Notes: generated by a model not told the origin, from the sequence alone. A stretch of 32,000 nt of DNA from Gemmata obscuriglobus (GCF_008065095.1 NZ_CP042911.1:3720001-3752000), one strand, 5' to 3'. Numbered from the stretch's first letter, positions 1,897 to 19,388 are shown. A program made the numbers and translations.

Positions 1897-2290
1897 CGCG
1901 GGCCGCCCCCAGGAGCGGCGGCCCGGTGTTCTGCTGATCGACCCGGACCCGACCGCCCGGGCTAGCCTGGCCCGCGGGCTCGAGGGCGCCGGCTGGCACG
2001 TGTGGGCCGTGGACGGCAGCACCGCCATGGAAACGTACCGACTGCACCGGGACAATATTGACGTTGCGCTGGTGGACCTTCAGTTCCCGGGCCTTCAGGG
2101 CGGGCGACTGCTCGCCGAACTGGGGCAGGTGGCTCCCGAACTGACCCGGTGTGCGATGTCCGGCGGGGTGAAGGCGTACACCGCATCCGCGTACCGGCGG
2201 ATGAGCGGCACCCCTCTGTTCGCCAAACCGCTCGACCCGCGTGCGCTGGCCGCGGCCCTCCATGACCTATTGCTCGTGAGCCGCACCTGA
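1880..2290 (+). CDS. single-domain response regulator (CheY-like receiver, no output domain)
   Basis: GTG start at 1880 is preceded by GGAGG (1869-1873) with a 6-nt spacer. Receiver signatures are VLLIDPDP, VALVDLQFPG (phospho-acceptor Asp context) and FAKPLD (conserved Lys). It overlaps the otsB 3' end by 17 nt. Confidence 0.8.
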   Translation: MTTLYDAGRPQERRPGVLLIDPDPTARASLARGLEGAGWHVWAVDGSTAMETYRLHRDNIDVALVDLQFPGLQGGRLLAELGQVAPELTRCAMSGGVKAYTASAYRRMSGTPLFAKPLDPRALAAALHDLLLVSRT

Positions 2291-3782: not shown

Positions 3783-4603
3783 GTTCACCTGGGTGACCGG
3801 GGACAGCGTGTACGGCGACAGCCCGACATTCGTGCAGGGGGGCCGGGCTCTGGGCACGTGGTACGTGGTCGACGCGTCGGCCGACGCGCGGGTGTGGGTG
3901 GCCGAGCCGGTGGTCGTGCCGGCGGGCACCAAGGGCCGCCGGGGCCGTGCCACCACCGCGCCCCATGTGGCCACCAAGCCCGAGCGGGTGGACGCGGTGG
4001 CCGCGCGGCTCCCGGCCACGGCGTGGACCCGTGTGGTGGTGGCCGAGGGGAGCCAAGGGCCGAGGATCTTCGAGTACGCGGCCCTCTGGGTGTGGTTCAG
4101 CGAAGAAGGGCTCCCATCCGGGCGCGAGCGCCTGTTGGTGCGCCGGTCCGTGGGCCAGGAGCCCGAGCTCAAGTGCCACCGGTCCAACGCGCCCGAACAA
4201 ATCACGGTGGCGAAGTTGGCCCCGGTGCGCGGGTGCCATTGGTCGGTGGAGCAGAGCTTCCAGGCGGCCAAGGGGGAGTGCGGGTTGGACGAGTACGAGA
4301 CCCGGGGTTGGGTCGGGTAGCACCACCACACCGCCTTGTCCCTGTTGGCCTTGTGGTTCCTGGCACGGCAGAAGCGCCGGTTGGGGGAAAAAAGAGCCCC
4401 AGATGAGTTCCCCCGAGGTGCGCGCCCTGCTCGGGCACCTGCTCGACACGCGGCGCTGGGATGAGGACCAAATCCTGACGTGGTCCCGGTGGCGACAGGA
4501 GCGCAATCGCATCGCCAAAAGGTGCCACCGGAAGCGCCACCAGGCCGCACTGAGCGTAGCCGACGCCGAGCGGCGGAGTCGGGGACAACCAGAGGCGCTG
4601 TAG
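3783..4603 (+). pseudogene. IS701-family (DDE) transposase remnant: 5'-truncated at the IS66 end, with one in-frame stop and one frameshift
   Basis: Frame 1 reads (W)VTGDSVYGDSPTFVQ...LLVRRS...ELKCHRSNAP...WSVEQSFQAAKGECGLDEYETRGWVG, then TAG (4318-4320) where this family has Trp, then HHHTALSLLALWFLARQKRRLG. Homology then continues in frame 2 (SSPEVRALLGHLLDTRRWDEDQILTWSRWRQERNRIAKRCHRKRH) after the G5A6 run at 4383-4393. The N-terminal half is absent. Confidence 0.75.
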
Positions 4604-4913: not shown

Positions 4914-6572
4914 TCAGTGATTCCATGAGAGTTCGGTGCTGTTGAAGAGCGCCCAGTACAGGTCCGCGAGCCGCCGCCTGCGTTCGTCACCACTCGTATT
5001 CGCAAGTCTGGTTGCGAAGTGGTGGCTTTCCTTCGGAGTTGGTCGGCGCGTCAGCACGGTCAGGTAAGCCGCTTCGACCGCGGCGCGATCGTCCGGCGCG
5101 AACATTGCGATTTGTGCCGAAGCACTCAACAGTTCTTCATTCGCCTTGCCGTCCACCAGGTCACCGTTCATCACCAGTAGGCGTTGCGGGATGGTGCCAC
5201 TGGATCGGGCGAATTCGTCGTCGTCGGCGTCGCCGTATCGCGCCACAAAATCCTTCTCGCTGAAGTACCGGGCCAGCCGCACGAAGACGTGCGATTGCTG
5301 GTCTATCGTTTTCACACTTGCGGCCTGGATCACGTTCCCGATCACTTGTTCGGGGCGCAGCCGCGAGAGGGGGAACACGGCCCACGCTTCGTCATGAGAC
5401 TCGGTAATTTCGAACGCGGCAGCGCTGTCGAGCCGAAACACGTCGAGGGAGGAAATGAGCAGGATGAGCCGGCGGATGTCGTGCCCGTGGGCCGCAAAGT
5501 CGTCCCCCAGAATGCGGAGCGCGGGGGGCGCCTGCTCGTCGCTCATCTCTGCAAGCGTCTGTGCTTCGATCCGGTTCGTCAGCGGGCGGCCGAACAGCAT
5601 GGCCCACACACGGTTCACGGTCGCACGCGCGAAGTAGACGTTCTTCGTGTCGGTGACCCACGCCGCGAGGCGCGAGCGCCTCGTGCCGGTGGCGGGCAGC
5701 AACTCCGGCAGAAATGGCACACCGGGACCGATTTCATGTCGCCCGCCCGCAACGCGATCCTCGAAGCCGTATTCGCCGGTAGCAGCGTCCGTGATGTTGG
5801 TCACCACATGTCTCGTCTGCCCGAAGAACGCTGCGAGTGCCTGGAAATGCGTCTGCTTCCAAGTCGGTTCGAGGAAGTGGTCATGGCACTGCGCGCAGTC
5901 GATGCGCAGACCCAGGAACGCACGGCTGACGCGCACCGCGAGCTTTTCGGGGTCAGGGGCTTCCTTGTTGTCGTCGTAGCCCGCGGCTACGAAGTTGACC
6001 GCGGGCACATCCGTGTTGAGACCTTGCGCGGCAATCATCTGCGTCACGACCTCGGCATACGAGGTGTTCTTGAGGAACTCGTCGCTCAGCCACGCGATAA
6101 ATTTGCGCTTGCGGTACACGACGGGTGGCCCGTCTTCGGTGCCGATGTACGCCCGCGCGAGTCGGTCGGCGAAGTAGTCGGCGAACCGTCGGTCCTTTAG
6201 CAGGTGATGCGCCCAGCCCTCAACACGCATCTCGGGCGATTGCTCCTCGAACTGGCGGACATCTTCCAGCGACGGCACGCTGCCCGTGAGCGCGAGCGAC
6301 AGCCGGCGGGCCACGGTGAGGTCAGCAGCGAGTGGGGCAGGGACGAGCCCTTTTTCGGCCCACTGGTCCCGAAATGCGCGGTTCACCTTCGCGACCGTGA
6401 CACGGAAGTCGGGCCGCTCGGTCGGGGCTGCGTCGAACGTGATCTTGCGCCTGGGTGCGGATAGTGGAAACAGGCTCGCCCACAGCGAGAGAGCTGAGCC
6501 GAGTACGACCGCGGCGAATAGGACGTTTCGGCCCCACATATCTGATGTTCCGTGCGGGAGATCGCAGTGCAT
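4914..6572 (-). CDS. DUF1549/DUF1553 domain protein (planctomycete PSD1-type), N-terminal membrane anchor
   Basis: DUF1549-like WAEKGLVPAPLAADLTVARRLSLALTGSVPSLEDV; DUF1553-like RIDCAQCHDHFLEPTWKQTHFQALAAFF; family-typical C-terminus DLYWALFNSTELSWNH. The start is uncertain. ATG 6572 has a GGTGGG-like SD; ATG 6539 sits directly before the hydrophobic anchor. ATG 6740 is unlikely because it would overlap the divergent gene. Confidence 0.85.
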   Translation of the reverse strand: MHCDLPHGTSDMWGRNVLFAAVVLGSALSLWASLFPLSAPRRKITFDAAPTERPDFRVTVAKVNRAFRDQWAEKGLVPAPLAADLTVARRLSLALTGSVPSLEDVRQFEEQSPEMRVEGWAHHLLKDRRFADYFADRLARAYIGTEDGPPVVYRKRKFIAWLSDEFLKNTSYAEVVTQMIAAQGLNTDVPAVNFVAAGYDDNKEAPDPEKLAVRVSRAFLGLRIDCAQCHDHFLEPTWKQTHFQALAAFFGQTRHVVTNITDAATGEYGFEDRVAGGRHEIGPGVPFLPELLPATGTRRSRLAAWVTDTKNVYFARATVNRVWAMLFGRPLTNRIEAQTLAEMSDEQAPPALRILGDDFAAHGHDIRRLILLISSLDVFRLDSAAAFEITESHDEAWAVFPLSRLRPEQVIGNVIQAASVKTIDQQSHVFVRLARYFSEKDFVARYGDADDDEFARSSGTIPQRLLVMNGDLVDGKANEELLSASAQIAMFAPDDRAAVEAAYLTVLTRRPTPKESHHFATRLANTSGDERRRRLADLYWALFNSTELSWNH

Positions 6573-6694
6573 ACCCACCGTCCATCGTGCGCGTTTCACG
6601 AAACCGTACGCTTCGTCCGGGGGTAGTACGGGTGCCGGTCGGTGAGTACCTACCGGGAGTTCTGCAGGCACCCGATTCGGCCCCCACAATTCCA

Positions 6695-7915
6695 ATGGCA
6701 GCTCACGCAATTCCCGTCGCGCCGCCGCTGATCGGACCAACGTTCGATGACCCTCTTCCGGTCGCGCAACCGGTTCGTGCGCCAGTTCCGGAGATGATTC
6801 CCGGTGCGGAGCCGGGTGCGAACCCGTTGCTGCGCGCGATCGGCCTCCTTGGAGCAGGGCTGGAATGGTGCTTCGGGGTTGTGGTACTGCTTCTGGGCCT
6901 ATCGGTGCTGGCGGCGGTGCCGCTCGGGCAGTTCTTGGTTTTGGGCTATCTGTTGGAAGCGAGCGGGCGGGTGGCCCGATCCGGGCGCATCCGGGATGGG
7001 TTCATCGGCGTCCGCCGGGCGGCCCTGTTCGGAGGAGCCGCGTTGGTGGGCGGCGTGATGTGGCTCCCGCTCTACCTGATGTCGCTCCAGGCGGAAGCGG
7101 CTCGGATCATCGACCCGCGCGGGACGATCGCGCGGGTGTGGGAGATCACGCTCGGCGTCTCCGCGGTGGTTCTCGTGCTCCATGTGGCCGGCGCGCTTTT
7201 CTGGGGCGGGCGGGTCCGGCATTTTTTGAATCCGATCAACGTTCCGTGGCTCGCGCACCGGCTGTTCCAGGGCGGGATGTACCAGGAGGCACGAGACCGT
7301 GTTTGGGAACTCGTTGTCGGGTTACGGCTGCCGTACTACTTCTGGCTCGGCCTTCGGGGGTTTGTGGGCGGGTTCATCTGGCTCGCGTGCCCGCTTTTCC
7401 TTCTCGGGCTCGGGCACAAGTTTTGGGGCGTCGGGTTGCTCGGCGCGGCGCTACTTTCGGTTGTGGTGCCGTGCGTACCCTTCTTGCAGGTGCGGTTCGC
7501 CCGGACGCGGCGGTTCGCCACGTTTTTCGAGTTGCGAAAGGTCCGCGGCGTGTACCGACGGGCGCCGCTTGCGTTTGCGTTCGCACTGTGTGTCCATCTG
7601 CTGTTCGCGATGCCGCTATACGTGCTGAAAATCGAACTCATCCCGCGCGAACTGTTCTTCGTTGAGGGGCTGTTCTTCCTGCTGTTCATCTTCCCGGCGC
7701 GGCTGCTGGGTGGGTGGGCGTATGCACGCGGCACGCGGCGCCAGCTACCGCGGCTTTGGGTGTCCCGGTGGGCAGGCCGGCTCGCGGCGGTTCCGGTGGT
7801 GCTCGCGTACGTGTTTGCCGTGTGGGTGTCACAACACATTGGCTGGGCGGGCGTGTCGAGCCTGTACGAGCAGCACGCGTTCCTGCTGCCGGTACCGTTC
7901 GTGACGTGGCGGTGA
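6695..7915 (+). CDS. polytopic integral membrane protein, family not recognised
   Basis: ATG at 6695 within ORF 6455-7915. A Pro-rich N-terminus is followed by many long hydrophobic segments (e.g. WCFGVVVLLLGLSVLAAVPLGQFLVLGYLL, LFFLLFIFPARLL, AAVPVVLAYVFAVWV). It is divergent from the DUF1549/1553 gene and convergent with the DUF58 gene. Confidence 0.65.
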   Translation: MAAHAIPVAPPLIGPTFDDPLPVAQPVRAPVPEMIPGAEPGANPLLRAIGLLGAGLEWCFGVVVLLLGLSVLAAVPLGQFLVLGYLLEASGRVARSGRIRDGFIGVRRAALFGGAALVGGVMWLPLYLMSLQAEAARIIDPRGTIARVWEITLGVSAVVLVLHVAGALFWGGRVRHFLNPINVPWLAHRLFQGGMYQEARDRVWELVVGLRLPYYFWLGLRGFVGGFIWLACPLFLLGLGHKFWGVGLLGAALLSVVVPCVPFLQVRFARTRRFATFFELRKVRGVYRRAPLAFAFALCVHLLFAMPLYVLKIELIPRELFFVEGLFFLLFIFPARLLGGWAYARGTRRQLPRLWVSRWAGRLAAVPVVLAYVFAVWVSQHIGWAGVSSLYEQHAFLLPVPFVTWR

Positions 7916-7937: not shown

Positions 7938-8819
7938 TTACCGCCCGTGACGCTTCTGAAGGTACGCGGCGAGGTCGTGCCCGAGGTCGGCGTCGGTGCG
8001 GAGCCGGACGTAGTCGATCTCCAACCGCCGACAGCCGCTCTCGATCGAATCGATGTGCGCGTGGAGCGCTTTCAAATAGCTGTCACGAACGCCGGCCGGG
8101 TCGGTGAGGACTTCCGGCATCCCCTCAAGGCCCTTGAACAGCGTCGTCTGGCGGAACGGAAAATCGAGTTCGGCCGCGTCGAGCGTGTGAAACAGCACCA
8201 CCTCGTGTTTCTGGTAGCGGAGGTGCTGTAGTGCCGCGAGAAGATCCGGTACGTCGTCGAGCAGGTCGCTGAACACGAACACGATCCCGCGCCGCCCGGT
8301 GCGCCCCGCCAGTTCGTCCATCCCGCGTGCGGCCCCGGCCCCGTCGGAAAAGGGGCCGGTCGCCATCACGCGACACGCCTCGCGGAGCTGGTTCGACTGG
8401 CCGGACGGTCGCAGGAATGCACGCACCCCGCCGGCCACCAAACTGACGCCCACGGTGTCGGCCTGCTGGAGCACGAGGTAGGCCATCGCGGCCGCCGCCG
8501 AGCACGCGAGTTCGTACTTGCTGCGGGCCGCGGAGGCGTACGCCATCGACTCGCTGGCGTCCACAACGACCCACGCGACGAGGTTCGTCTCCTGCTCGTA
8601 CTGCTTCATGAAGTACCGTTTGGTCCGCGCGTACACGGCCCAGTCGATGTGCTTCACGTCGTCGCCCGGCGCGTACTCGCGGTGCTGCGCGAACTCCACC
8701 GCCAGCCCCTGGCGCGGGCTGCGGTGCTTGCCCGCGAGGTAGCCTTCCACGAACTGCCGCGCCTCGATCTCCAGGCGGTCGATTCGGGACAGAACGGCGG
8801 CGTCGAGCGGGTTCGACAT
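7938..8819 (-). CDS. DUF58 domain protein (VWA-like, MoxR-associated)
   Basis: HRSPRQGLAVEFAQHREYAPGDDVKHIDWAVYARTKRYFMKQYEQETNL...VVVDASESM is the canonical DUF58 signature. The start lies 12 nt downstream of the MoxR stop. Confidence 0.85.
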   Translation of the reverse strand: MSNPLDAAVLSRIDRLEIEARQFVEGYLAGKHRSPRQGLAVEFAQHREYAPGDDVKHIDWAVYARTKRYFMKQYEQETNLVAWVVVDASESMAYASAARSKYELACSAAAAMAYLVLQQADTVGVSLVAGGVRAFLRPSGQSNQLREACRVMATGPFSDGAGAARGMDELAGRTGRRGIVFVFSDLLDDVPDLLAALQHLRYQKHEVVLFHTLDAAELDFPFRQTTLFKGLEGMPEVLTDPAGVRDSYLKALHAHIDSIESGCRRLEIDYVRLRTDADLGHDLAAYLQKRHGR

Positions 8820-8831
8820 GGTGCGGGTGAC

Positions 8832-9881
8832 CTATTCGGCCGAACGCGCCGGGACCAGCGCGAGCAGCTTTTTCACAATTTCGTCGGGCGTGACGCGGTC
8901 GGCGTCGGCGTTGTAGTTGGTGACGACCCGGTGCCGCATGACGGGCAGCGCGACCGCCTTCACGTCCTCGGTCGCCACGTAGGTGCGACCGTGCAGCAGG
9001 GCTCGCGCCTTGGCTGCGAGGACGAGGTTCTGACCCGCGCGCGGCCCCGCCCCCCAGGTCACGTACTTCTTCACGAAGTCGGGCACGTTCGGGTCCGGCG
9101 CCTCGCCGTCCTGGGTGCCGGGACGGGTGAGGCGGGCGATCCGCATCGCGTACCGAATGACGAAGCCGGCCGCGGGCACCCGGCGCACCAGCTTTTGCAT
9201 CTCCAGCAGCTGCGGCCCGTTTACAACGTGCTCCGGCTTTTCGCGGCTCGCGGTCGTCGTGGACTCGAGAATGCGGAACTCCTCCTCCTCGCTCGGGTAG
9301 CCCACGTTGACCGTGAACATGAAGCGGTCCTGCTGGGCTTCGGGCAGGGGATAAGTGCCCTCCTGCTCGATGGGGTTCTGGGTCGCGAGGACGAAGAACG
9401 GGTCGGGCAGCAGGTGCCGGACGCCCGCGACCGTGACCTGCCGCTCCTGCATCGCTTCGAGCAGCGACGACTGCGTCTTGGGCGGCGTCCGGTTCACCTC
9501 GTCGGCGAGCACCACGTTGGCGAACAGCGGACCCGGGAGGAACTTGAACACCGGGCGGTGCGTCTCCGGGTCCTCTTCGATCATCCGCGTCCCGGTGATG
9601 TCGGTCGGGATCAGGTCGGGGGTGAACTGGACGCGGTTGAACGTGAGGTTCATGCTGTCCGCGAGGGTGCGGATCATGAGCGTTTTCGCCAGCCCGGGCA
9701 CCCCGACCAGGAGCGCGTGCCCTTGCGCCAGTAGGGCGATGAGCAGCAGCTCCATCACGTCCTTCTGGCCGACGATAACCTTGCCGCACTCCTCGCCGAT
9801 CCGCTCGGCCGCGGCGCGCAGTTGGTCGACCGCGTGGGCGTCGTCGCCGCTCAGACCGACAGGTTCCGCTCGAACAGACAC
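8832..9881 (-). CDS. MoxR-family AAA+ ATPase
   Basis: GTG start at 9881 with GGAG 6 nt upstream. It has Walker A LLVGVPGLAKT, the MoxR-typical FNRVQFTPDLIPTDITGT, Walker B VVLADEVNR and ATQNPIEQEGTYPLPEAQQDRF. Confidence 0.9.
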   Translation of the reverse strand: MSVRAEPVGLSGDDAHAVDQLRAAAERIGEECGKVIVGQKDVMELLLIALLAQGHALLVGVPGLAKTLMIRTLADSMNLTFNRVQFTPDLIPTDITGTRMIEEDPETHRPVFKFLPGPLFANVVLADEVNRTPPKTQSSLLEAMQERQVTVAGVRHLLPDPFFVLATQNPIEQEGTYPLPEAQQDRFMFTVNVGYPSEEEEFRILESTTTASREKPEHVVNGPQLLEMQKLVRRVPAAGFVIRYAMRIARLTRPGTQDGEAPDPNVPDFVKKYVTWGAGPRAGQNLVLAAKARALLHGRTYVATEDVKAVALPVMRHRVVTNYNADADRVTPDEIVKKLLALVPARSAE

Positions 9882-9920
9882 GTTGTTCTCCAGCCGGCGT
9901 TCGGACGTTGCGAGTTAGGA

Positions 9921-12900
9921 CTATTTCAACCAAACGACCCGGTCGCCGGTTGCGATCACGGTGGCATTCGGGCCGAACCACACGGCCAAGCCGGGGCCTC
10001 GGGCCGGGACGTTGAAGCGGCCCGTGCGCGTGCCCGTCTCGGGGTCGAGGAGCACCACGGGCACCACACGATCGACCCACGCATCATACAGCGTTGCGGC
10101 GAGCCCGGGGAGCCGCCACAGGTGCGGTTCCCGCCGGAACGATCGTGACAGCCGCGCCAGAACATCCGCCACCGGCTCGCGCGTGGGCGCTTGGCGAGGG
10201 TGGGCGATCAGGCCCGATTTCCCGACCCGCACCGCCCACCCCGCGTCGCCGGCGTCCGGCAGCGTGACCGACCACGCGGGCGTGCCGTCTTCTCGTGCGA
10301 GCGCCACCACCTTGTTCCCAACGGGAACGTAAATACGATCGGCGTCCGCGTCGACGCCGGACAGGTCAATGTGATCGGCGTCGAGGAACGCGGGCTCGTG
10401 CCATAGAGACTTGCCGTCGGCCGCGCTAACCGGTTCGAGGTCCACTCCGTAATTGCGGCGCACGGCGATGAGCAGTTCGGCACCGAACGCACGCACCTGC
10501 GGCGGTTCGCCGGCCAGCCCCTCGGGGCGCTCGGCCGCGAACACCCATTTGGTGCGAAGGCCCGGTGTGAACACGACGAACCGGCCCCGCCCCGGTACGG
10601 GAAGCGCGATCGGCGGAACGTCGTTCGGTCCGCCCAGATCAACGAGCCGCACGTGGCCGGCCCCGTCAGCGAGCGCGAGGTGCCCGCCCGAGATCTCCAC
10701 CGGCGCGTGCGGCCAACTCGCCAGCGCCGTGCCGGTTGGGTGGGGCGGTTGCGTTTCGAACCGGCCGGTGTCGAGCCGCACGAACCAGAGCTGACCGTCG
10801 GAGAGCTGTGCGACCACGAACCGGTTTGCTGTCGCGAAATGCGGCTCGAACCTGGGAGTCGTAGCGAACATCACCGATTCATACCCGCTGTCGCCGGTCG
10901 CCGCCAGCACCCATGCCACCCGCCGGGCGCCGAGGTCGAGCGCGATGAGGTGGAACTCGCCGAGCCGCGCCACGAGCCACGAGCCCGCGAGCCGAAAGGA
11001 CGACAGGTACGGTCCGAGCGTGTCGGCACCGGCGCGTAGTTGGTAGGGCAAGGCCCCTGGCGTGAGTCTTGCCGTGACCGGCGCCCGAAAAATCCAAACC
11101 GGATCGCGGGCCGTACCGTACAGCGCGACGATCCGCGGACCTACCGCCAGAAAGCCGTCCGGCAGATCCGCTGCGTGAGTGAACAGTTCCGTGGCGGCGT
11201 GTTCCGTTTCGGCGCCCTGATTGAGCGGCACCGCAAGTACCTTGTCGCCACCGGCCATGAACAGCCGTTGGGGGGGCTCCGTTGAACCCGGGATCGAAAG
11301 TAATGGGCACATACCCGAGGGCGTCTGCCATGTGTGATCGCGCTCGGACCGCGGCGCCAGTGCCGGCGGGCACGGCGGGGTAGCGGGGCTCATTACGGGA
11401 ACCGATGGCGCACGTGTTGGGCGGTGAAGGTGCTCGCTCACGAAGGTTTCGAGCGTCACCGGAAGCCCCTCGGCCGTGAGAACCCATTCGGACATGAGGG
11501 CGGGGGGAAGAGCACGGCGCACGGTCGTGGGGAGTTCCCCTGCGCGCGGCGACAGTTGCACCATCCGGGCCGCGGCCCACGCGCGCAACTGGGGCGGGAA
11601 GTTACCCGTCGCGGCTTCCGTGAGGGCCGTAAAGCACGCGGCCGTGTTGCCCGCGGCCAGGTCGCGCTCCGACCGGTCGATGAGCCAGTGAAACAGGTCC
11701 GCCGGCGTGTCCGATCGCGGGACGATCTTGTACGACTCGGCACGGTATCCCCAAATTTGTGCGTGCGTGACCACGACGAGCGTGCCGTCGGCGTAAGCCA
11801 AATTCCCGAAGAACGTTCGGTTCTCGAGTAGATCTCCGGTCATTGGATTCGAGCGACCCGAAGGGGGCAGACCGTTTTCGGGGCGTGCGAAGGTGGGGAG
11901 CGGCGCGGGGAGCGGGTTCGGGCGGCCGGGGGTGGGAAACCCATTTTCGGGGCGCACAAAGTACAGCCCGGCGCGCGACGGCCACAAGATCACGTCGTCG
12001 GTGACAACCCCTTGGCCGTAAGAAAGCGTACCGCCCTGCACCCAGCCGCCGTCCTCACGGTGGTGCGAGCCAGTGTCCAGGTCCAGCCCGCGCAGCCCCG
12101 CGAGCGGCCCGGTCACCGTGACGATGACCCGCCCCCGCGCGACCCCCAGGATTCGTGCCCCTTCCGTCGGGCCGGAGCCCCAGACCACACCGCCGGTGGC
12201 GCCGTCGAGGCAATACACGCGTTCGCCGTCGGCCGGCGCGACCAGCACCCGACCGCCGAACGCGACCGCCGGGCTGGGGTCGCCCGCGTAGTTGCTCTTA
12301 CGCGAGCGCGGGTAGCGAAACGCCCACGCCCGCTGTCCGGTCGCGGCGTCCACCGCGACGACCGCGCCGGTGTTGGAGCAGAACACGAGGTTCCGCCCAC
12401 AGAGGGTGAGCAGTTCCTGGCGCGTCCGGCCGGCGCCCGAGACCGGCTGGGCGCTGTCACAGAGCTCGGTTGCCCACGCGGGGCGGTCCGGGGTTCGGTC
12501 GCCGACCGGGTCGTAACAGACCGCGACGTGAACCACCCGTCCGCCCTCGAACTTGGCGTACACGGCCCACAGCCGCTTCCCGACCACGAGCGGCGCGCCT
12601 TCCCAGGCGGCCGGCACCTTCCGGTCCTCGGGCGGGGGGAGCTTCCACACCGGCTCGATTTCGTCCTCGGTCGGTCGCAGGCACGCAAGATACGATTCCT
12701 CGGCATCGCCCCTCGAAAGGTCCTCGGGCGTGCGAACCGCCGGCGGGCCGAACCGAGCGTACAGGCGCCCGTCGGCCGCGGTGAGTGACGCGCAGGCGTC
12801 GACCGAGTAGCCCGGTAGATCCGACTTTACTTTCACCTCCGAAGAGAAGTACGGGCGCGGCTTGCCGCTCCGCAGGTCGAACCGGTACACGCGACTGGCG

Positions 12901-13850
12901 TCCGCAACGAACACCTCGCCGTTAGCGATGACAGGGTGTCCGAACGGCTGGCGCGCCGGCGGGTTGTTCGCCTCGCGCCGCGGGACCGCGGGGAGGCGCG
13001 CGGACCACGACGCCCGGCCCCAGTCGCGGGGGACGCCGCCGGGCACGCGCCCCGCTCGGTCCGGGCCGCCGCCGAACGTGGCCCACGACTCGGCCGACGG
13101 CTCCGGGGCGAGTTGCGGCTTGGCGTCCAGAACCGCCTGAAGTGTGTCAGCCAGCAGCCCGGTTTTGCCCGCGAGCGCGCCGGTCGCGTTCGGGTGCTTC
13201 TGCTTAAACCCGTCGAGAGCGTCCTTCGCACGGGAGGGCTGACCGCCGACCGCCAGCGCGAGAACGATTCGCGCACGCACAAGTGCCGGATCGGTGCTGG
13301 AATCGGGGTACACGAGGTCCGCGCCTGCGTCCGGCAACAGTTGCCGCCACACGGACTCCGCGCCGCGGAACTCGCCGCGCTCGAACAGCAGGTCGCCGAG
13401 AAGGAGCAGCGCCTCGCCCGCGGGGCGCGAGACGAAGTAGCGGTCGAGGAGCTGGTAGAGCGGCTGCGGGTCGCGCCCCTCCTTCGCTTGTGCCAGCAGC
13501 CGCTTCGCGGGCTGATCGATCCGGTCCCGGTAGGTCCGCAGCACGTCCGGGCTGAGTCGGCTCAGGAGCTGGTGGGCCAGCCGCCGCGCGGTCGGGTGCG
13601 ACTGGTTCACTTCGGGCGGGATGAGGTCGCCGCCCGACTCGTCGAGCACGCGCTGGAGGTCATCGGCCGCGTCCGCGTGCTTGCCGGCGGCCAGTTTCTG
13701 CTCGATCTCCAGCAACCGCTTGCGGGTCTGAGCCGACGCGCCGCGGACGGCGGCCGATTCCGGCGCGGGGGCCGAGGCCGGTTGCGCGGCGGCAGCGCCG
13801 GCGAGGGTCAGCAGGGCCAGTGTTGCGGCGGCGCGGGCGGCCCGGTTCAT
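9921..13850 (-). CDS. large secreted TPR-like / PQQ-like (BamB-type) beta-propeller repeat protein, 1309 aa
   Basis: ATG at 13850 (in frame with stop 9921) gives the signal peptide MNRAARAAATLALLTLAGAAAAQP. A helical repeat region follows (LLLLGDLLFERGEFRGAESVWRQLL). There are multiple propeller-repeat signatures: VVAVDAATGQRAW, VYCLDGATGGVVW, LIALDLGARRVAW and VVALAREDGTPAW. The rest of the 2116-aa track ORF upstream of 13850 is antisense to the cytochrome c gene and is treated as artefact. Confidence 0.8.
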   Translation of the reverse strand: MNRAARAAATLALLTLAGAAAAQPASAPAPESAAVRGASAQTRKRLLEIEQKLAAGKHADAADDLQRVLDESGGDLIPPEVNQSHPTARRLAHQLLSRLSPDVLRTYRDRIDQPAKRLLAQAKEGRDPQPLYQLLDRYFVSRPAGEALLLLGDLLFERGEFRGAESVWRQLLPDAGADLVYPDSSTDPALVRARIVLALAVGGQPSRAKDALDGFKQKHPNATGALAGKTGLLADTLQAVLDAKPQLAPEPSAESWATFGGGPDRAGRVPGGVPRDWGRASWSARLPAVPRREANNPPARQPFGHPVIANGEVFVADASRVYRFDLRSGKPRPYFSSEVKVKSDLPGYSVDACASLTAADGRLYARFGPPAVRTPEDLSRGDAEESYLACLRPTEDEIEPVWKLPPPEDRKVPAAWEGAPLVVGKRLWAVYAKFEGGRVVHVAVCYDPVGDRTPDRPAWATELCDSAQPVSGAGRTRQELLTLCGRNLVFCSNTGAVVAVDAATGQRAWAFRYPRSRKSNYAGDPSPAVAFGGRVLVAPADGERVYCLDGATGGVVWGSGPTEGARILGVARGRVIVTVTGPLAGLRGLDLDTGSHHREDGGWVQGGTLSYGQGVVTDDVILWPSRAGLYFVRPENGFPTPGRPNPLPAPLPTFARPENGLPPSGRSNPMTGDLLENRTFFGNLAYADGTLVVVTHAQIWGYRAESYKIVPRSDTPADLFHWLIDRSERDLAAGNTAACFTALTEAATGNFPPQLRAWAAARMVQLSPRAGELPTTVRRALPPALMSEWVLTAEGLPVTLETFVSEHLHRPTRAPSVPVMSPATPPCPPALAPRSERDHTWQTPSGMCPLLSIPGSTEPPQRLFMAGGDKVLAVPLNQGAETEHAATELFTHAADLPDGFLAVGPRIVALYGTARDPVWIFRAPVTARLTPGALPYQLRAGADTLGPYLSSFRLAGSWLVARLGEFHLIALDLGARRVAWVLAATGDSGYESVMFATTPRFEPHFATANRFVVAQLSDGQLWFVRLDTGRFETQPPHPTGTALASWPHAPVEISGGHLALADGAGHVRLVDLGGPNDVPPIALPVPGRGRFVVFTPGLRTKWVFAAERPEGLAGEPPQVRAFGAELLIAVRRNYGVDLEPVSAADGKSLWHEPAFLDADHIDLSGVDADADRIYVPVGNKVVALAREDGTPAWSVTLPDAGDAGWAVRVGKSGLIAHPRQAPTREPVADVLARLSRSFRREPHLWRLPGLAATLYDAWVDRVVPVVLLDPETGTRTGRFNVPARGPGLAVWFGPNATVIATGDRVVWLK

Positions 13851-13964
13851 AGAATGCGCTCGTACCCCGAGAGTGCCCCGCCCGTCGGACGGGACCGCTT
13901 TATTGTTGACATTCCGGCCCAAAGCACAAGCGCCGGCGGCCGAAAAAGTCGCCGCGATCCGCTC

Positions 13965-15410
13965 ATGACGAACTCGCGTTGGTTCCTGGCGTGCGTCGGT
14001 GTTGCGGCGTTCGGGTTCACCGGCTGCGGCGGCTCGACCGAAGGGCACGCGCCGCAACCGGCCGCCGCCACGGCCCCGCCGACGACGCGGTACGCGCCGC
14101 GTACCGACCTGATGGCGGTGAAGATCCCCGACGGCGCCCCCGCGCACTGGTCTGCGGCGCGGTTCCCGCCGCTGAAGAGCGTTCGGCTGATGCCCCACAC
14201 GCCCGACGCCGATCTGGCGACGGATCTGCGGAAGCAGTTCGGCAAGAACATCCTGGACCCGATCGTTTACGAACAGGACGTGTGGATGCCGGCCCAGGCG
14301 GACCGCCTCGCCCGGGTACTCGACGCACACTTCGGCACACCCGCCGCCCCGACCGTCGTGGTGCCGGAACTCAATCACCTCGCGGCAACCAGTACGGTCC
14401 GGTTCGATCCGACGCTCAGCCTGGGCGCGAACTTGAAGGAGGCGCAGAAGCAGTTCGGTAAGGCCAAGTTCAAGGAGCTGGAAGCGGACCGGCAGACCGC
14501 GAGCGAGATGAAGCGGGAGCTGAAACTGGACGACGCGACGCTCGCCCGCGGGGCCGTGTTGTACCGGCGGTGGTGCATGCAGTGTCACGGCCCGAGTGGG
14601 GCCGGCGACGCGGCCTACGCGATCGAGGCCGGGCCGATGCCCCGGGACTACCGCCAGGGCGCTTTCAAATACACGACGGTGCTCGTGCCGGCGACCGCTC
14701 CCAAAAAGGCCGGCCTGGGCGCGGCCGGCAAGCCGCTCCGCTCGGACCTCGTGCGCACCGTCCGCAACGGCATCGACGGGACCATGATGCCGGCGTTCCC
14801 GTCCCTGACGGCCGCCGAACTCGACGACGTGATTAGTTACGTGATCCACCTGAGCGTGCGCGGGGAGGTCGAATTCGCGGCGCTGGCGAGGGCGATCAAG
14901 CCCGGCGGCGACGACCCCATCTACGAAGGCGCCGAAATGGACTGGCTGGTCGCTCAGACCGAACTGGCGGTCCTGTACAACTGGAGCGTCGCTGCGAAGC
15001 ACCCGATCCCGGTGCCCGCGGAGCCGGTGATGACTGAGAAGGAGCGGATCGACTCGGCGGTGCGGGGGTACCGGCTGTACAACTCGCCGGAGTTCGGGTG
15101 CGGGAGTTGCCACGCGAACTACGGTCGCGCCCAGCAGTTGAAGTGGGACATTTGGGGCACGATCGTTCAGCCCCGGAACCTGACGCTCGGCGTGTACCGG
15201 GGCGGACGCAAGGGCGAAGACCTGTACGCGCGGATCTACGGCGGGATCGCCCCATCGGGGATGACGGCCTTCCACGACCGCGTGACGAACGCCGCCCCGG
15301 GCAGTCCGAACAAGATCTGGGACGTGGTCCATTTCCTGCAGGCACTGGGTGACGCGGGCGACCGCCGTCGGATGCAGGAACGCGATGCCGAGATCAAGTT
15401 CGACCCGTGA
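13965..15410 (+). CDS. dihaem c-type cytochrome lipoprotein
   Basis: ATG at 13965 (in frame with ORF 12936-15410) gives MTNSRWFLACVGVAAFGFTGCGG, a lipobox with Cys. There are two haem-binding CxxCH motifs: CMQCH (14574-14588) and CGSCH (15099-15113). MPAF lies downstream of the first motif as a candidate Met ligand. Confidence 0.8.
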   Translation: MTNSRWFLACVGVAAFGFTGCGGSTEGHAPQPAAATAPPTTRYAPRTDLMAVKIPDGAPAHWSAARFPPLKSVRLMPHTPDADLATDLRKQFGKNILDPIVYEQDVWMPAQADRLARVLDAHFGTPAAPTVVVPELNHLAATSTVRFDPTLSLGANLKEAQKQFGKAKFKELEADRQTASEMKRELKLDDATLARGAVLYRRWCMQCHGPSGAGDAAYAIEAGPMPRDYRQGAFKYTTVLVPATAPKKAGLGAAGKPLRSDLVRTVRNGIDGTMMPAFPSLTAAELDDVISYVIHLSVRGEVEFAALARAIKPGGDDPIYEGAEMDWLVAQTELAVLYNWSVAAKHPIPVPAEPVMTEKERIDSAVRGYRLYNSPEFGCGSCHANYGRAQQLKWDIWGTIVQPRNLTLGVYRGGRKGEDLYARIYGGIAPSGMTAFHDRVTNAAPGSPNKIWDVVHFLQALGDAGDRRRMQERDAEIKFDP

Positions 15411-16372
15411 TTCCTCGGGAACATCCCGTTTAAATGTCTTTCGCTGTGACGCGCGGGCATCTTGCCCGTGTTGCCCGATGTAAGGTGTCGCCCTGGACCA
15501 AACAGCAACACCCGAAAGCCGGAGCGAGAAGGAGCATTCCCAATCACCGATTTGCTGCGGGTTGACTGATCGGCACATCGGGTAGTTCCCCACCATTTTC
15601 TCTCGTGAGGGGCTTCCGGAAGTTCTCACCACACCTTGCGGGCACTTGGGTGCCATCGGTGCCCTGTCGTCGCTCCAGAAGCGGGCTCTTTTGCAGAAAA
15701 CGCTTCGGCCGCAAGCATCAATTTTTGAACACGTTGCGTCACATTCAACCCGAGTACTGGGCGAAGCTGGTGCGCCTGTTTGGTCCTCATCGGGCGAAAA
15801 GAACGCGTGATTTCGTGGGTAGCTGCCACCCAGCGAATGGCCAACTCGTGACCAGTCAGACGCCAGCAGATGTCCCCTTCGTGTCCAGTCGGAGCCGGCT
15901 GAGCGAAGCGGCACTGTAACCCCCGTTACAGAGCAGCGGGCCGGGCGACCTTGTTGCGCCGAGACAGCTACTCCAAATCTCCCTCGAACAGACATTCCCG
16001 TTCCTCCACTTCCGACTTCCGCGGCGCTGTCCGGTCCGTGTTGCCGCTTGGCGCTGAGTTCGGTGGCCGAAGACCGAACCGCGAACGCGACGCATGCCTT
16101 GGTGAGAACTCCCACCGGCGCAACGGCCGGTGCGTACTGCGGCCGATGGCACCCGGTGTATGCGTCGGTCATCCGAGCGGCGGCGGACGGGTGGTGGCGC
16201 CGCCTTGAACCGGTCGCCCACGCCCCCGGTGCATCGTCGCACGACCCGCAGTCACGTCCGCAGCGGCTCACAAGGTGCGGGAGAACAACAGGTTGGTGCG
16301 GGTGGGCACCCGGTTGGTGATCGGCGCGTTTTGGGGTGGCGCTGGCGGTGGTGAGCTTGGCGATGGACCGGG

Positions 16373-16625
16373 TTGGTCAAGACGCGCCCTGTGAAGCGGT
16401 ACTACCGAACGGATCGGAACTGCAATGTGCGCAAGACGTGCAGCTTCTCAAAGGACCGGGAGATGCACCGGGCGGCCACTCGCTTGAACGAATTTAGCGA
16501 CAACTTCCGTCGTTCGGTGGCGACGCGACGTTCCAAGGACGTGGACGGACTTTTGCGGCGAAGAATCCCGGTGACGGCCGCTGGATTAACCGACCATGTG
16601 TGGAGCTTGCCAAGTGGCTGGCATT
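16373..16625 (+). pseudogene. IS1-family-like transposase C-terminal remnant
   Basis: Translation ...DRNCNVRKTCSFSKDREMHRAATRLNEFSDNFRRS...IPVTAAGLTDHVWSL resembles the conserved tail of IS1-type transposases (ER.N...R...RKT..FSK..E.H.......YNF.R.H..L..TPAMAAGLTDHVWSL). It is shortened and degenerate, and no DDE core is recognisable upstream. Confidence 0.45.
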
Positions 16626-16774
16626 TCCTGCCGGACGACGCAAGTAGGACCCCACCCGTGTCGGTCTCTGGACACAAATTGACATCGCGTGATCTTGCAC
16701 TCACCACATTGCAGCGCATGGTATACAATTCGTCATATCCGCCCGCCACCGTACCCGCTGACGTACCCACGCCT

Positions 16775-17119
16775 ATGGCAATTCGTTCAATCTCGCACTT
16801 CCTCTGGCAGGTTCTGCGTGCCACGAAGCGAAGTAAGAAACCGCCGACCGGCCGCCAATTGCGGATTTCCCCGACACCGAGGTCCAAGGACGGTTCGTTC
16901 CTGACGGCGCTCGTTGACGAAGGACTGCTGAAGTTCGTCACAGGATCCCCGGCCGCCCCGTTCGAAGCCACGTTCTCACTGACCGAGAAGGGGGAGCACG
17001 CGGCCGAATACGGCGAGTACGAGTACGAGCCGAAGCGCCCGGCGCCCCAGCCCCCTCCCCCCGTGGTAAAGTCCGCGCCTCCCACGGCGAAGAAGGTCCG
17101 CAGCGCCAAGAAGCCGTAA
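16775..17119 (+). CDS. hypothetical small protein; possible winged-helix-like core with a Pro/Lys-rich tail. The start is uncertain and it may be read as one ORF with the IS1 remnant.
   Basis: This is the in-frame continuation of ORF 16373-17119. MAIRSISHFLWQVL...GSFLTALVDEGLLKFV...FSLTEKGEHAAEYGEYEYEPKRPAPQPPPPVVKSAPPTAKKVRSAKKP. No convincing SD precedes ATG 16775 or ATG 16718, and no family was recognised. Confidence 0.3.
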   Translation: MAIRSISHFLWQVLRATKRSKKPPTGRQLRISPTPRSKDGSFLTALVDEGLLKFVTGSPAAPFEATFSLTEKGEHAAEYGEYEYEPKRPAPQPPPPVVKSAPPTAKKVRSAKKP

Positions 17120-17378
17120 GTCCGGCCCCACGACAGGAAACGCCCAAGGGGCCGAAACAGCCCCTGAGCGTCCGTAAAGCAACCGCACGTTTCTGACCCG
17201 CCGGTGGCCGGATTCGTTTCGCCCGCGGTTGGTGCCCTGAAGCGCTTGCCATCGCCCCGTCGTGCCTATCACCCGTCACAACTTCGTTCGCTTGGCCAAG
17301 CTCATCGGCGATTGTGACATCCGCCCGCCTACCAGTGGCCGATCTCCGACCACGCCTCCCGGCATCCCGCCCAAACCA

Positions 17379-17825
17379 TTGGCAGTGGGTCTAGATATGG
17401 AGATGACAGCCGAGTCGGGAAGATGATCCCCCTCCGCTTCAACTCTTCCTCAAGCTCGAGCGGCGCGTGATGATATCCGCCGCGCTAGCCGACGTGTTAC
17501 GCGGGTACCTCGACGGGAAGTCGCTTGACGAACCGGTGTGACCTGGGAGTTGGTCAGATCGCGGGGCCGACATGATCAAGATCGACGCTCAGACCGCCGG
17601 GATTGCGACCGAAGTTGCCATTAAGGACGGGCCGCAGGAACTCAGTTCCACTCGCTTCGGGGAACCTTCGCAACGTTCCTGGACGGGATCAACATTTCCC
17701 TGAAGTCGCGTCAGGAACTGATTTGGCACTCGGGTCCGCGGCTCACGATGAAGCGATACACACGGACGAAGTTGTCCGAATTGGGGGAAGCAGCAACAAA
17801 AAAACGTGATTTTCACCGCCTCTGA
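17379..17825 (+). pseudogene. tyrosine recombinase (phage-integrase family) C-terminal remnant
   Basis: Frame 1 reads LADVLRGYLDGKSLDEPV, then TGA (17539-17541) where Trp is expected, then PGSWSDRGADMIKIDAQTAGI. After a -1 shift, frame 3 reads FHSLRGTFATFL (from 17646; the H-x-x-R box) and RQELIWHSGPRLTMKRYTR (His and catalytic Tyr box, Tyr codon 17757-17759), with the stop at 17823-17825. The N-terminal domains are missing. It lies next to the 3' end of tRNA-Ser. Confidence 0.65.
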
Positions 17826-17918
17826 TGACCGAGCCGAACGCCGATTTGTCTTACACAAACTTACACTAGCGCCTGCGGGCGAGGGCAGTTTTGAGCGGGT
17901 GAGAGCGGAAATGAACGA

Positions 17919-17950
17919 GATCGGCGAGTAGCTTTCGCTACTCGCCGATC
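17919..17950 (-). terminator. perfect 14-bp stem / 4-nt loop hairpin downstream of tRNA-Ser (candidate terminator)
   Basis: GATCGGCGAGTAGC-tttc-GCTACTCGCCGATC lies 33 nt beyond the tRNA 3' end on the minus strand. On that strand it is followed by tcgttcatttcc, which is only moderately T-rich. Confidence 0.4.
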
Positions 17951-17981
17951 AGATTGAAAACCACGTAATCACGTCAAGTTA

Positions 17982-18071
<90 letters not shown>

Positions 18072-18078
18072 AAATGGC

Positions 18079-18107
18079 TTAAAAACTAACCCATTCAGCC
18101 GTTTGCA
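18079..18107 (-). promoter_or_regulatory. candidate sigma70-like promoter for tRNA-Ser
   Basis: On the minus strand: TGCAAA (reverse complement of 18102-18107), a 17-nt spacer, then TTTTAA (reverse complement of 18079-18084), ending 7 nt before the mature tRNA 5' end. The match to consensus is weak and planctomycete promoter rules are poorly known. Confidence 0.25.
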
Positions 18108-18399
18108 TCACCCGCCTGTGTTTCGTGTCATTAACCACTCACTACGACCAGAATACATACTGTAGTGAACAGATGCTCTCAGCAGGTTGCAACCGGATAG
18201 AGACACCTTACCAACCTCTTGAGCCGAGAAGGTGACGCTTGGAGAAGTCTATTGGTTCACTCGCGTCGAAGCAATCCCCAACCGCCCAAAGAAACTGTAC
18301 GCCGATTTTCGCCACAGGGAGTTTACACCGCTTTCCCGCTGTCTACCGTTCTTGGGAACTTTACCACGCTTGCGTCTGTCGCCGAGGTGCAGGTAAAGG

Positions 18400-18736
18400 G
18401 CCCAGATCGCCCGCCCGGGGCTGTCCAAAGCGGTGCCGGCCGGGAAGCCGTACCGGACCTTCGGGGCGCCGTGGAGTGGCGAGTCGGACGTGGCCGTGGT
18501 TGAGATCAGTGCGGACGCCGGGAAGTCGTGGTCGGAGGCCAAGCGGCTGGGGCACGCGGTGCCGTTCGCGTGGCGGCTGTGGGCGTTTTCGTGGGACGCT
18601 CCTGAAACTACTGGACGGTACAAAGTGATGGGCCGGGCACTGCACCGACGGACGCACGCCGCCCGTGGAGCATGACGCGAACCGGCGGACCTACACGATC
18701 AACTTTGTTTTCACGGTCGAGGTCGAGGCGGTGTGA
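18400..18736 (+). pseudogene. fragment of a sulfite-oxidase-family molybdoenzyme (C-terminal Moco-dimerisation/Ig-like domain only), frameshifted
   Basis: Frame 1 reads AVPAGKPYRTFGAPWSGESDVAVVEISADAGKSWSEAKRLGHAVPFAWRLWAFSWDAPETTGRYKVMGRA. After a +1 shift near 18636-18641, frame 2 reads TDGRTPPVEHDANRRTYTINFVFTVEVEAV, with the stop at 18734-18736. The pattern G.AWSG...I..VEVS.D.G.SW..A.L....AW..W...W....G.Y....RATD matches that domain. No catalytic domain lies upstream. Confidence 0.5.
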
Positions 18737-18809
18737 TCGGCATCGGAGGGCCGGCCACTACAATCGGCCCTGGCGGTCCAAGTGGGACGGCCACTTCTCG
18801 GAGGCGACC

Positions 18810-19193
18810 ATGAAGGTGATCATCGCAGCGGCGCTGGTTCTCGGGCTGGGCAGTTTCGCGCGGGCGGAAGACAAAGCGAACCCGGTGGGCACGTGGAAGT
18901 GCGAGTACACGATCGGGGACATGAAGCGGACGGCCGAACTGGTGGTCACGAAGGACGGGGACAAATTGGCCGGGGTGATGAACTGGCCGGACCAGAAGGG
19001 CGCGAAGGTCAAGGATCTGAAGTTCAAGGACGGGGAACTCACGTTCTCCGCGGTGCGGAAGTTCATGGATAACGAGATCGCCATCGACTACAAGCTGAAG
19101 GTCGAGGGAGAGAACCTCAAGGGGAAGGCGGCGGCGGAAGTCGGGGGCAACAAGCAAGAGTTCGACATCGAAGGGAAGCGGGAGAAGAAGTAG
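18810..19193 (+). CDS. small secreted beta-rich protein (127 aa), hypothetical
   Basis: ATG 18810 is preceded by GGAGG (18800-18804) with a 5-nt spacer. The signal peptide is MKVIIAAALVLGLGSFARAED. The mature part is Lys/Glu/Gly-rich with alternating beta-like pattern (GTWKCEYTIGD...LAGVMNW...LKFKDGELTF...YKLKVEGENLKGKA). Confidence 0.75.
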   Translation: MKVIIAAALVLGLGSFARAEDKANPVGTWKCEYTIGDMKRTAELVVTKDGDKLAGVMNWPDQKGAKVKDLKFKDGELTFSAVRKFMDNEIAIDYKLKVEGENLKGKAAAEVGGNKQEFDIEGKREKK

Positions 19194-19284
19194 CCTGATC
19201 CGGCTCAAACCGTCAGTTGTTCGCCGGGATCGCTGGCGCACCGCTGCCAGCGAACCGCCGAAGGCGGCTGTCCCTGGCCCCTGT

Positions 19285-19388
19285 CGCGGCAGGGCCAACG
19301 CACTCACCCACGCCAGAATTTGATGCTACCTACCTCGAAATACTACTGCTGAAAAAATTACGAGGTTGAGTGCGTTGGCCCTGCCGCG
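19285..19388. repeat. 104-bp palindromic element: perfect 22-bp inverted arms around a 60-nt AT-richer spacer
   Basis: cgcggcagggccaacgcactca (19285-19306) is the exact reverse complement of tgagtgcgttggccctgccgcg (19367-19388). The spacer contains an inner 6-bp inverted repeat acctcg (19332-19337) / cgaggt (19361-19366). It lies in the 283-nt gap between the secreted-protein gene and the SDR gene. Confidence 0.9.

Follow-up and report, generated by a model that had tools for sequence, protein, structure and literature searches.

The four genes and their products

Positions 7938-15410 of a 32,000-nt stretch of Gemmata obscuriglobus DNA (referred to throughout as the window) hold a group of four genes: one for a large exported protein that joins a TPR-like domain to two beta-propellers, and one each for a MoxR AAA+ ATPase, a DUF58 protein and a dihaem cytochrome c lipoprotein (Table 1). 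The propeller, MoxR and DUF58 genes lie on the same (-) strand, separated by gaps of 39 nt and then 12 nt; the cytochrome gene diverges from the propeller start across a 114-nt spacer, and a (+) open reading frame (ORF) ending at 7915 converges on the DUF58 gene from 22 nt away. Here we describe the conserved order of these genes in Gemmataceae and, in a more distant clade, an aa3-type oxidase operon headed by the homologous cytochrome gene, together with a gene for a giant BatA/VWA protein behind DUF58. On the best reading, what Gemmata retains is a reduced core, that of a Bat-type MoxR/VWA envelope module with ties to an aa3-type oxidase branch.

A preliminary description of this DNA had given the coordinates, the 39-, 12- and 114-nt gaps, the convergent 3' end and the sequence motifs, all of which check out on the sequence. 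The GTG start of the MoxR gene is supported, since homologues align from residue 1. Public records disagree on starts: MoxR is 307 aa in one record as against the 349 aa backed by homologues, and the cytochrome is annotated at 542 aa in one record as against 481 aa. A mechanical 2116-aa ORF at 9921..16271 was rejected as a high-GC artefact, the codon-position GC profile shifting frame near 13.9 kb.

Table 1. Coordinates of the four genes, of the domains of the propeller protein and of the divergent spacer, counted from the first letter of the window
Feature	Position	Strand	Description
DUF58 protein	7938..8819	-	293 aa, VWA fold
MoxR AAA+ ATPase	8832..9881	-	349 aa, GTG start
TPR + double beta-propeller protein	9921..13850	-	exported, 1309 aa
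Beta-propeller 2	9927..11342	-	about residues 837-1308; helical hairpin insert
Helical linker domain	11427..11705	-	about residues 716-808; from model
Beta-propeller 1	11742..13007	-	about residues 282-703; BamB-like, ~30 strands, fits 8 blades
TPR-like helical domain	13116..13733	-	about residues 40-245; helices in model, TPR_6 match
Signal peptide, propeller protein	13785..13850	-	residues 1-22, Sec type; no twin arginine, no lipobox Cys; read from sequence
Divergent spacer	13851..13964	.	114 nt, aligned across loci
Promoter-like element	13902..13929	-	TTGTGC (13929-13924), 16-nt spacer, AACAAT (13907-13902), faces propeller gene
Cytochrome c	13965..15410	+	dihaem lipoprotein, 481 aa; CMQCH at 204, CGSCH at 379

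The propeller protein is 100% identical to WP_010041460 and begins with the signal peptide MNRAARAAATLALLTLAGAAAAQP. It was modelled with AlphaFold2 as two overlapping halves from a 113-sequence alignment (mean predicted local distance difference test score, pLDDT, 89.5 and 91.7), and the blade numbers of its propellers come from strand counts together with structural matches. Two structural features claimed in the preliminary description, an N-terminal TPR-like module and BamB-type repeats, are borne out. TPR_6 matches the N-terminal part of the protein, scanned alone, at 30.5 bits against a cut-off of 26.3, the model has a helical domain there, and the most conserved motif of the whole family, QTRKRLxEAEQKL...LQRxLDExGDDLI, falls within it. 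In Foldseek, BamB is the best match for both halves: for propeller 1 at E 5e-13 and a template modelling (TM) score of 0.72-0.77, with tetrathionate hydrolase and YxaL next, and for the second half-model at E 1e-14. Dehydrogenases that use pyrroloquinoline quinone (PQQ) appear only from rank 40, at TM 0.38-0.48 normalised to the target. Because BamB tops this list and the PQQ dehydrogenases come so far down it, the fold is of the scaffold type, and both propellers are predicted by the models to be BamB-like scaffold folds.

Pfam places a PQQ_2 match (1.3e-18) at residues 495-637, and the quinoprotein family signatures are missed. PF01011 (PQQ), whose match covers just 75 residues, reaches 25.1 bits where its cut-off is 26.7; the NCBIfam model for PQQ alcohol dehydrogenases, TIGR03075, scores 18.3 bits against a cut-off of 480; and no vicinal Cys-Cys (CC dipeptide) occurs anywhere in the protein. 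The earlier judgement that this is not a recognisable quinoprotein dehydrogenase therefore holds, on the missed family cut-offs, the missing Cys-Cys and the low structural rank, and we regard a quinoprotein identity as ruled out by family cut-offs and structural ranking. Invariant positions of the propeller are mostly Gly, Trp and Pro, typical of scaffold repeats, and invariant polar residues in propeller 1 are few (Y513 and D541, with R512 nearly so). Neither the sequence nor the models appear to give any sign that the protein is itself a redox enzyme; of the 'redox or scaffold system' envisaged earlier, the scaffold half stands on the Foldseek matches to BamB, and nothing indicates that the propeller fills the redox half. 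Public annotation widely labels the family 'BamB', a label to which the equivalog models give no support (TIGR03300 at 30 bits against 285, PRK11138 at 19.5 against 423). A true BamB identity is ruled out by these models, and a systematic misannotation of the TPR-propeller family is thereby corrected. The Gemmata 'nuclear pore-like' beta-propeller proteins were likewise rejected as a match: they are of a different family, the one described carries the annotation Na-Ca exchanger/integrin-beta4, and the 1309-aa protein goes unmentioned in the paper (PMC5287468).

Short forms of the propeller protein (689-714 aa; loci L028, L035:6755-8899 and L036:4863-6932) consist of the TPR-like domain and propeller 1, without propeller 2. 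Those of L035 and L036 still lie between cytochrome and MoxR, and that of L028 has MoxR downstream and no cytochrome upstream. Since the short forms keep the cytochrome/MoxR neighbourhood, the N-terminal half is the core of the protein.

The assignments of MoxR and DUF58 made in the preliminary description were confirmed by clear family matches. MoxR matches AAA_3 at 2.9e-60 (202 bits) and AAA_lid_2 at 7.7e-20 in Pfam, its Walker A (GVPGLAKT at 60) and Walker B (LADEVNR at 125) motifs are both intact, and its nearest solved relative is 2r44 (1.3e-76); by these matches it is of the classical MRP/AAA_3 type. Its neighbour matches DUF58 at 3.9e-43 and VWA_2 at 4.8e-07, with an intact metal-ion-dependent adhesion site (MIDAS) motif, DASES, at residue 87, and found no relative in a PDB sequence search. 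As read from their sequences, neither protein has an export signal and the DUF58 protein has no membrane segment. The cytochrome, described earlier as a divergent lipobox protein with two CxxCH motifs, is indeed so: the lipobox reads GFTGC (lipobox Cys21), CMQCH and CGSCH follow, and the gene starts 114 nt from the propeller start. Pfam recognises Cytochrome_CBB3 and Cytochrom_C in it, and its N-terminal ~170 aa match no known domain.

Conserved linkage and the oxidase context in relatives

A one-genome-per-species scan gave 32 loci, the majority of which bear a Gemmataceae or Gemmata label, and further loci were added via the cytochrome or MoxR; this added set is biased towards linkage. Genes were counted as present on the strength of tblastn matches within limited flanks, and the sets include two pairs of near-duplicates (L054/L069 and L039/L058). 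Conservation of the four-gene unit had been set beforehand as a refutation test for the idea that the genes belong together, and the unit is indeed conserved: among assessable Gemmataceae loci, 24 of 27 have MoxR after the propeller gene, and 26 of 31 have the cytochrome divergently upstream of it. Since no other flanking gene family is common to more than 6 of 33 loci, the four genes form an island of conserved order, and their arrangement is more than chance.

The family reaches well beyond these genomes. Word-indexed searches gave a misleadingly narrow picture of it, the 187 matches to the propeller all being close relatives, Gemmataceae where named; an exhaustive HMMER search with residues 23-720 corrected this, with 753 cluster representatives (clusters at 50% identity) at E<=1e-30. 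The representatives listed have a hydrophobic segment at the N-terminus together with a related N-terminal motif, and the family comprises short (~700 aa) and long (1100-1520 aa) forms. A metagenome scan with a very diverse alignment failed, no stretch being conserved enough, and a narrower alignment of distant members worked, yielding 62 loci. The propeller protein of this distant clade is 28-37% identical to that of Gemmata. A cluster look-up of the distant members returned no taxonomy; the DUF1559 and FGE-sulfatase/kinase genes that flank them on their contigs suggest that the clade consists of planctomycetes and, judged by homology, the module is widespread in this group.

Of the assessable distant-clade loci, 23 of 38 have the cytochrome upstream of the propeller gene, and 17 of 26 have MoxR downstream of it. 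Wherever the cytochrome was present and the flank long enough (17/17 loci), the cytochrome is the first gene of a series that continues with COX2, COX1, CtaA and COX3, recognised in Pfam as COX1 (4.7e-145), COX2_TM and COX2, COX15-CtaA, and COX3. The oxidase operon and MoxR occur together in seven loci (L050, L051, L054, L056, L062, L066 and L069), and the full layout reads COX3 <- CtaA <- COX1 <- COX2 <- dihaem cytochrome c, diverging from TPR-propeller -> MoxR -> DUF58 -> giant BatA/VWA. Gemmata and distant cytochromes align by tblastn at 29-40% identity, the longest alignments covering most of the query, and all six distant examples compared likewise have a lipobox and a pair of CxxCH motifs. 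The Gemmata protein has the same architecture as the cytochrome of these aa3 operons (lipobox, N-terminal domain, two CxxCH), whereas its gene does not form an operon with COX2 and COX1. Because the homologues lead oxidase operons in 17/17 loci, a terminal oxidase is the probable redox context of this cytochrome, and the earlier view of it as a private partner of the propeller had to be given up.

Relatives also extend the MoxR-DUF58 side of the locus. A giant protein with a BatA N-terminal domain and VWA domains is encoded directly after DUF58 in nine loci (L028, L031, L044, L047, L048, L051, L062, L066 and L069) and near MoxR in two more; L028 and L031 among them are labelled Gemmataceae. 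The 32-kb window contains no BatA/VWA gene. The preliminary description had called the Gemmata chaperone module minimal, which is accurate for the window as it stands and probably not for an original state, given the giant gene that relatives carry after DUF58. The breadth of the distant clade suggests that the fuller arrangement is ancestral and the Gemmata locus reduced; the latter would look like an orphan system because it is a reduced remnant of a fuller module.

The MoxR region varies in two further ways. At L036:7001-15041 and in L073, no DUF58 gene follows MoxR, and genes for an extracytoplasmic function (ECF) sigma factor and a giant BatA/VWA protein lie ~2 kb downstream. Several distant-clade MoxR proteins (L047, L048, L051, L059 and L062) have an N-terminal extension with four Cys (CxxC, 12-13 residues, CxC), absent from the Gemmata MoxR, that in sequence looks like a zinc ribbon.

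The spacer between the divergent genes contains a conserved element of its own. Of 35 loci, 16 carry the 12-mer pattern AATGYSAASAAT (L001, L002, L005, L007, L008, L011-L014, L017, L020, L023, L024, L026, L032 and L034), L034 twice and the others once; every one of the 16 has a copy on the propeller strand 30-60 nt before the propeller ATG, and the pattern is found only once in the whole 32-kb window. The reverse complement of GAATGTCAA reads TTGACATTC, a -35 consensus (TTGACA) facing the cytochrome gene, and a variant form of the element is the inverted repeat GCATT...AATGC. The element, which may be a promoter or an operator, emerged only from the comparison of loci: a generic sigma-70 scan returned no promoter. 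Terminator-like sites were at chance level, and Rfam found a tRNA-Ser only, with no riboswitch or leader. Palindromic repeat insertions widen the cytochrome-propeller spacer at L002:9550-9749 and L004:9672-9997, lying to either side of the element and leaving it intact.

A candidate role at the oxidase branch, and its rivals

We consider it quite possible, if a little short of probable, that the module assists the assembly, cofactor loading or upkeep of a cytochrome c-oxidase branch, with the TPR-propeller protein as a periplasmic scaffold. In such a scheme, for which we infer the physical interaction of the products, their co-transcription, the client and the biochemical act, a cytoplasmic MoxR hexamer would spend ATP; DUF58 and, where present, the membrane-spanning BatA/VWA protein would serve as MIDAS adaptors, and MoxR with these adaptors would act at the cytoplasmic membrane, remodelling a client or loading it. 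The exported TPR-propeller protein would form the periplasmic arm of the machine, binding the cytochrome c and the oxidase branch, and the outcome would be help for the segment of respiration that runs from cytochrome c to the oxidase. With MoxR and DUF58 in the cytoplasm, and with Sec-type signals taking the propeller and cytochrome out of it, the scheme requires a link across the membrane; a BatA/VWA protein could let the cytoplasmic ATPase and DUF58 reach a periplasmic partner, and we predict that the Gemmata copy lies elsewhere. In Gemmata, then, the oxidase and BatA/VWA genes would no longer be adjacent, and cytochrome, propeller, MoxR and DUF58 would have stayed together.

MoxR/VWA pairs are widespread, and few have a known client, among them NorQD, CoxDE, CbbQO, RavA-ViaA and MxaRS. 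For the classical MoxR-DUF58-Bat type, we know of no client having been found since the Bat operon was described. The client of NorQD, cNOR, is a member of the haem-copper oxidase superfamily. NorQ and NorD, a MoxR-class ATPase and a VWA protein, insert FeB into cNOR (PMC9976466, PMC13036017). Like the module described here, they are an AAA+/VWA pair beside a respiratory enzyme with a c-type cytochrome, and the Nor pair is needed for metal insertion. However, NorQ comes from a different MoxR subfamily, NorD lacks the DUF58 identity, nothing in the nor system corresponds to the exported TPR-propeller, and of the two pairs only Nor has a known role in metal insertion. RavA-ViaA, which act on fumarate reductase (PMC10585395), are again a MoxR/VWA pair acting on respiratory complexes, but of another MoxR subfamily, with no exported partner and in another genomic context. 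By analogy, the Gemmata module is closer in logic to NorQ/NorD than to the mxa system of methanol dehydrogenase, and is probably an assembly or maintenance system.

Several observations weigh against a role at the oxidase branch. Linkage is frequent and not obligatory: within the Gemmataceae set, L018 has the propeller gene with neither MoxR nor cytochrome, L027 and L029 keep the cytochrome and lack MoxR, and L019, L028, L030 and L031 keep MoxR and lack the cytochrome; across all sets, the propeller occurs without MoxR in L018, L027, L029, L039, L043 and L058, and without the cytochrome in L019, L028, L030, L031, L044, L047, L048 and L057. Conversely, L033 and L037 hold MoxR-DUF58 pairs at 72-77% identity and no propeller gene. 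Across relatives, MoxR is conserved much more strongly than the propeller (75-97% vs 45-88% identity), which would also fit a general housekeeping role, and it is of the MRP/AAA_3 and not the NorQ/CbbQ type. The required membrane link is not encoded in the Gemmata locus. Finally, no oxidase gene lies within 8-10 kb in 21/21 assessable Gemmataceae loci, this window included; the oxidase link in Gemmata draws on the homology of the cytochrome (29-40% identity) and not on local context.

Some of these points feed the rival that survives best, in which the locus is a general Bat-type envelope or stress module, acting on the envelope at large as has been proposed for Bat and Cmd operons, and the adjacency of cytochrome and oxidase reflects shared regulation (by oxygen, for example) and not a client relation. 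Indeed, the composition of the operon is Bat-like. Bat (Bacteroides aerotolerance) operons consist of MoxR, DUF58, BatA/BatB (VWA membrane proteins) and BatC/BatE (TPR proteins); the Gemmata operon has the same MoxR (AAA_3) and DUF58 pair with an exported TPR-containing partner, and in relatives a BatA-N-terminal/VWA protein comes directly after DUF58. It departs from the Bat pattern in that its TPR part comes joined to one or two BamB-like propellers in a single protein encoded upstream, in that one giant protein, absent from the Gemmata locus, replaces BatA and BatB, and in its divergent coupling to a cytochrome c and oxidase operon. For Bat proteins themselves, an action on periplasmic redox state has been put forward (PMC3557215). 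A general function would suit the many members in which MoxR has no cytochrome or oxidase genes nearby (L044, L047, L048, L057 and L059), the MoxR-DUF58 pairs that occur alone and the high conservation of MoxR. It sits less well with the cytochrome of Gemmataceae, which stays beside the propeller in 26/31 loci after the oxidase genes have moved away, with the conserved spacer element, and with the oxidase operon that follows the cytochrome in 17/17 distant loci; we judge it rather unlikely.

The preliminary description had drawn on mxa logic, in which the propeller would be an unrecognised periplasmic redox or metal enzyme, matured by MoxR/DUF58 and passing electrons to the dihaem cytochrome. 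The background it gave on mxaR and mxaS is correct: methanol dehydrogenase depends on MxaR and MxaS, together with MxaACKL, for the insertion of its Ca2+ (PMC12276312), so that MxaR and MxaS load Ca2+ into an eight-bladed propeller enzyme. That part of the analogy also stands in which the four roles recur together across loci, and both systems set MoxR and VWA-type partners beside a dedicated c-type cytochrome and an eight-bladed propeller in the periplasm. Furthermore, tetrathionate hydrolase, a cofactor-free enzyme of the same fold, is among the top structural matches, and propeller 1 does keep the few invariant polar residues named above (Y513, D541 and, nearly, R512). As the nearest analogy, however, mxa does not hold, the propeller being BamB-like and without a quinoprotein signature (PQQ below its cut-off, TIGR03075 at 18 bits against 480, no Cys-Cys, PQQ dehydrogenases at rank 40 or lower with TM 0.38-0.48, invariant positions mostly Gly, Trp and Pro), and MxaJ, MxaI and MxaACKL having no counterparts in the Gemmata locus. 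The cytochrome, homologous to that of an oxidase operon, points to an oxidase and not to a dehydrogenase, and an enzymatic propeller is accordingly a distinctly unlikely explanation.

That there is no functional coupling at all, only the inherited order of an autonomous MoxR-DUF58 pair and unrelated neighbours, seems very improbable. Exceptions to linkage in both directions and products in different compartments would be expected of it, as would the MoxR-DUF58 and propeller-MoxR gaps, which vary and are sometimes large, with unrelated genes inserted in L062 and L047; yet linkage persists from 88% down to ~30% propeller identity while all other flanks change. We give scant credence to an outer-membrane protein assembly factor made of a BamD-like TPR fused to a BamB-like propeller. 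BamB, likewise an eight-bladed propeller, is the best structural match for both propellers and the name that public sources give the protein, but the equivalog models fail, the Gemmata protein has several domains, no lipobox or lipid anchor and three to four times the size of BamB, and it is encoded among MoxR, DUF58 and cytochrome genes instead of bam genes. Barely credible, lastly, is a MoxR-vWA-beta-propeller 'ternary' conflict system, a three-component MoxR, VWA and TPR/propeller set also found in planctomycetes, whose VWA protein carries a C-terminal propeller of about four blades and whose P-loop is frequently, not universally, GxxxTAKS (Kaur, Burroughs, Iyer, Aravind 2020): Pfam bpMoxR does match MoxR at 1.1e-11 and the third component does have TPR and beta-propeller regions, but AAA_3 scores 202 bits against 45 for bpMoxR, the P-loop reads GVPGLAKT, the VWA protein (293 aa, VWA domain only) lacks a propeller at its C-terminus, the third component is most conserved at its N-terminus instead of variable there, and synteny beside respiratory genes is stable and vertical. 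The absence of three defining features (P-loop variant, propeller fused to the VWA protein, variable N-terminus) and of any PADLOC hit rules this identity out.

The assembly role at the cytochrome c-oxidase branch can be carried further, to the more doubtful proposal that planctomycete Bat-type machines have this branch, with its aa3-type oxidase, as a dedicated client and that the TPR-double-propeller protein is a new periplasmic assembly factor or structural subunit. If true, its role would be comparable to that of the propeller and TPR assembly factors of photosystems, of which Ycf48, a propeller protein, and Ycf3, a TPR protein, are common examples. In suggesting a client for Bat-type systems, the genomic context makes the long-standing question of their function testable, and genetic tools are available for planctomycetes. 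In the open-access literature we searched, there was no account of the propeller family or of its MoxR-DUF58 link, and no link between Bat-type operons and cytochrome c oxidase operons was described. The components are of known kinds; their combination with an oxidase operon appears to be new.

Flanking DNA

Beyond the cytochrome gene, positions 15411-19300 of the window have a lower GC content (~0.61) and a weak coding signal, hold a tRNA-Ser(GCT) gene at 17982-18071 (-), and are common with Gemmata algarum for only ~500 nt; this segment may be a species-specific insertion or the remnant of an integrated element. On the other side, the gene convergent to DUF58 (6695-7915, +) encodes a multi-pass membrane protein without family match and stands beside a gene for a planctomycete PSCyt2/PSD1 protein (4914-6740, -), both kept only in close Gemmata relatives (L001, L005 and L007). 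In some other Gemmataceae lineages, including L034 and L035, the convergent gene directly after DUF58 is of the Lactonase family (PF10282).

At L037:2966-8053, a MoxR-DUF58 pair with no TPR-propeller or cytochrome gene nearby is separated by an IS66 transposase from the gene for an unrelated 426-aa PQQ_2 protein. In the window itself, an IS66-family transposase with DUF6444 and zf-IS66 (2267-3712, -) and a DDE_5 transposase fragment (3793-4320, +) adjoin genes for trehalose synthesis, one OtsA-like (30-983) and one OtsB-like (862-1896).

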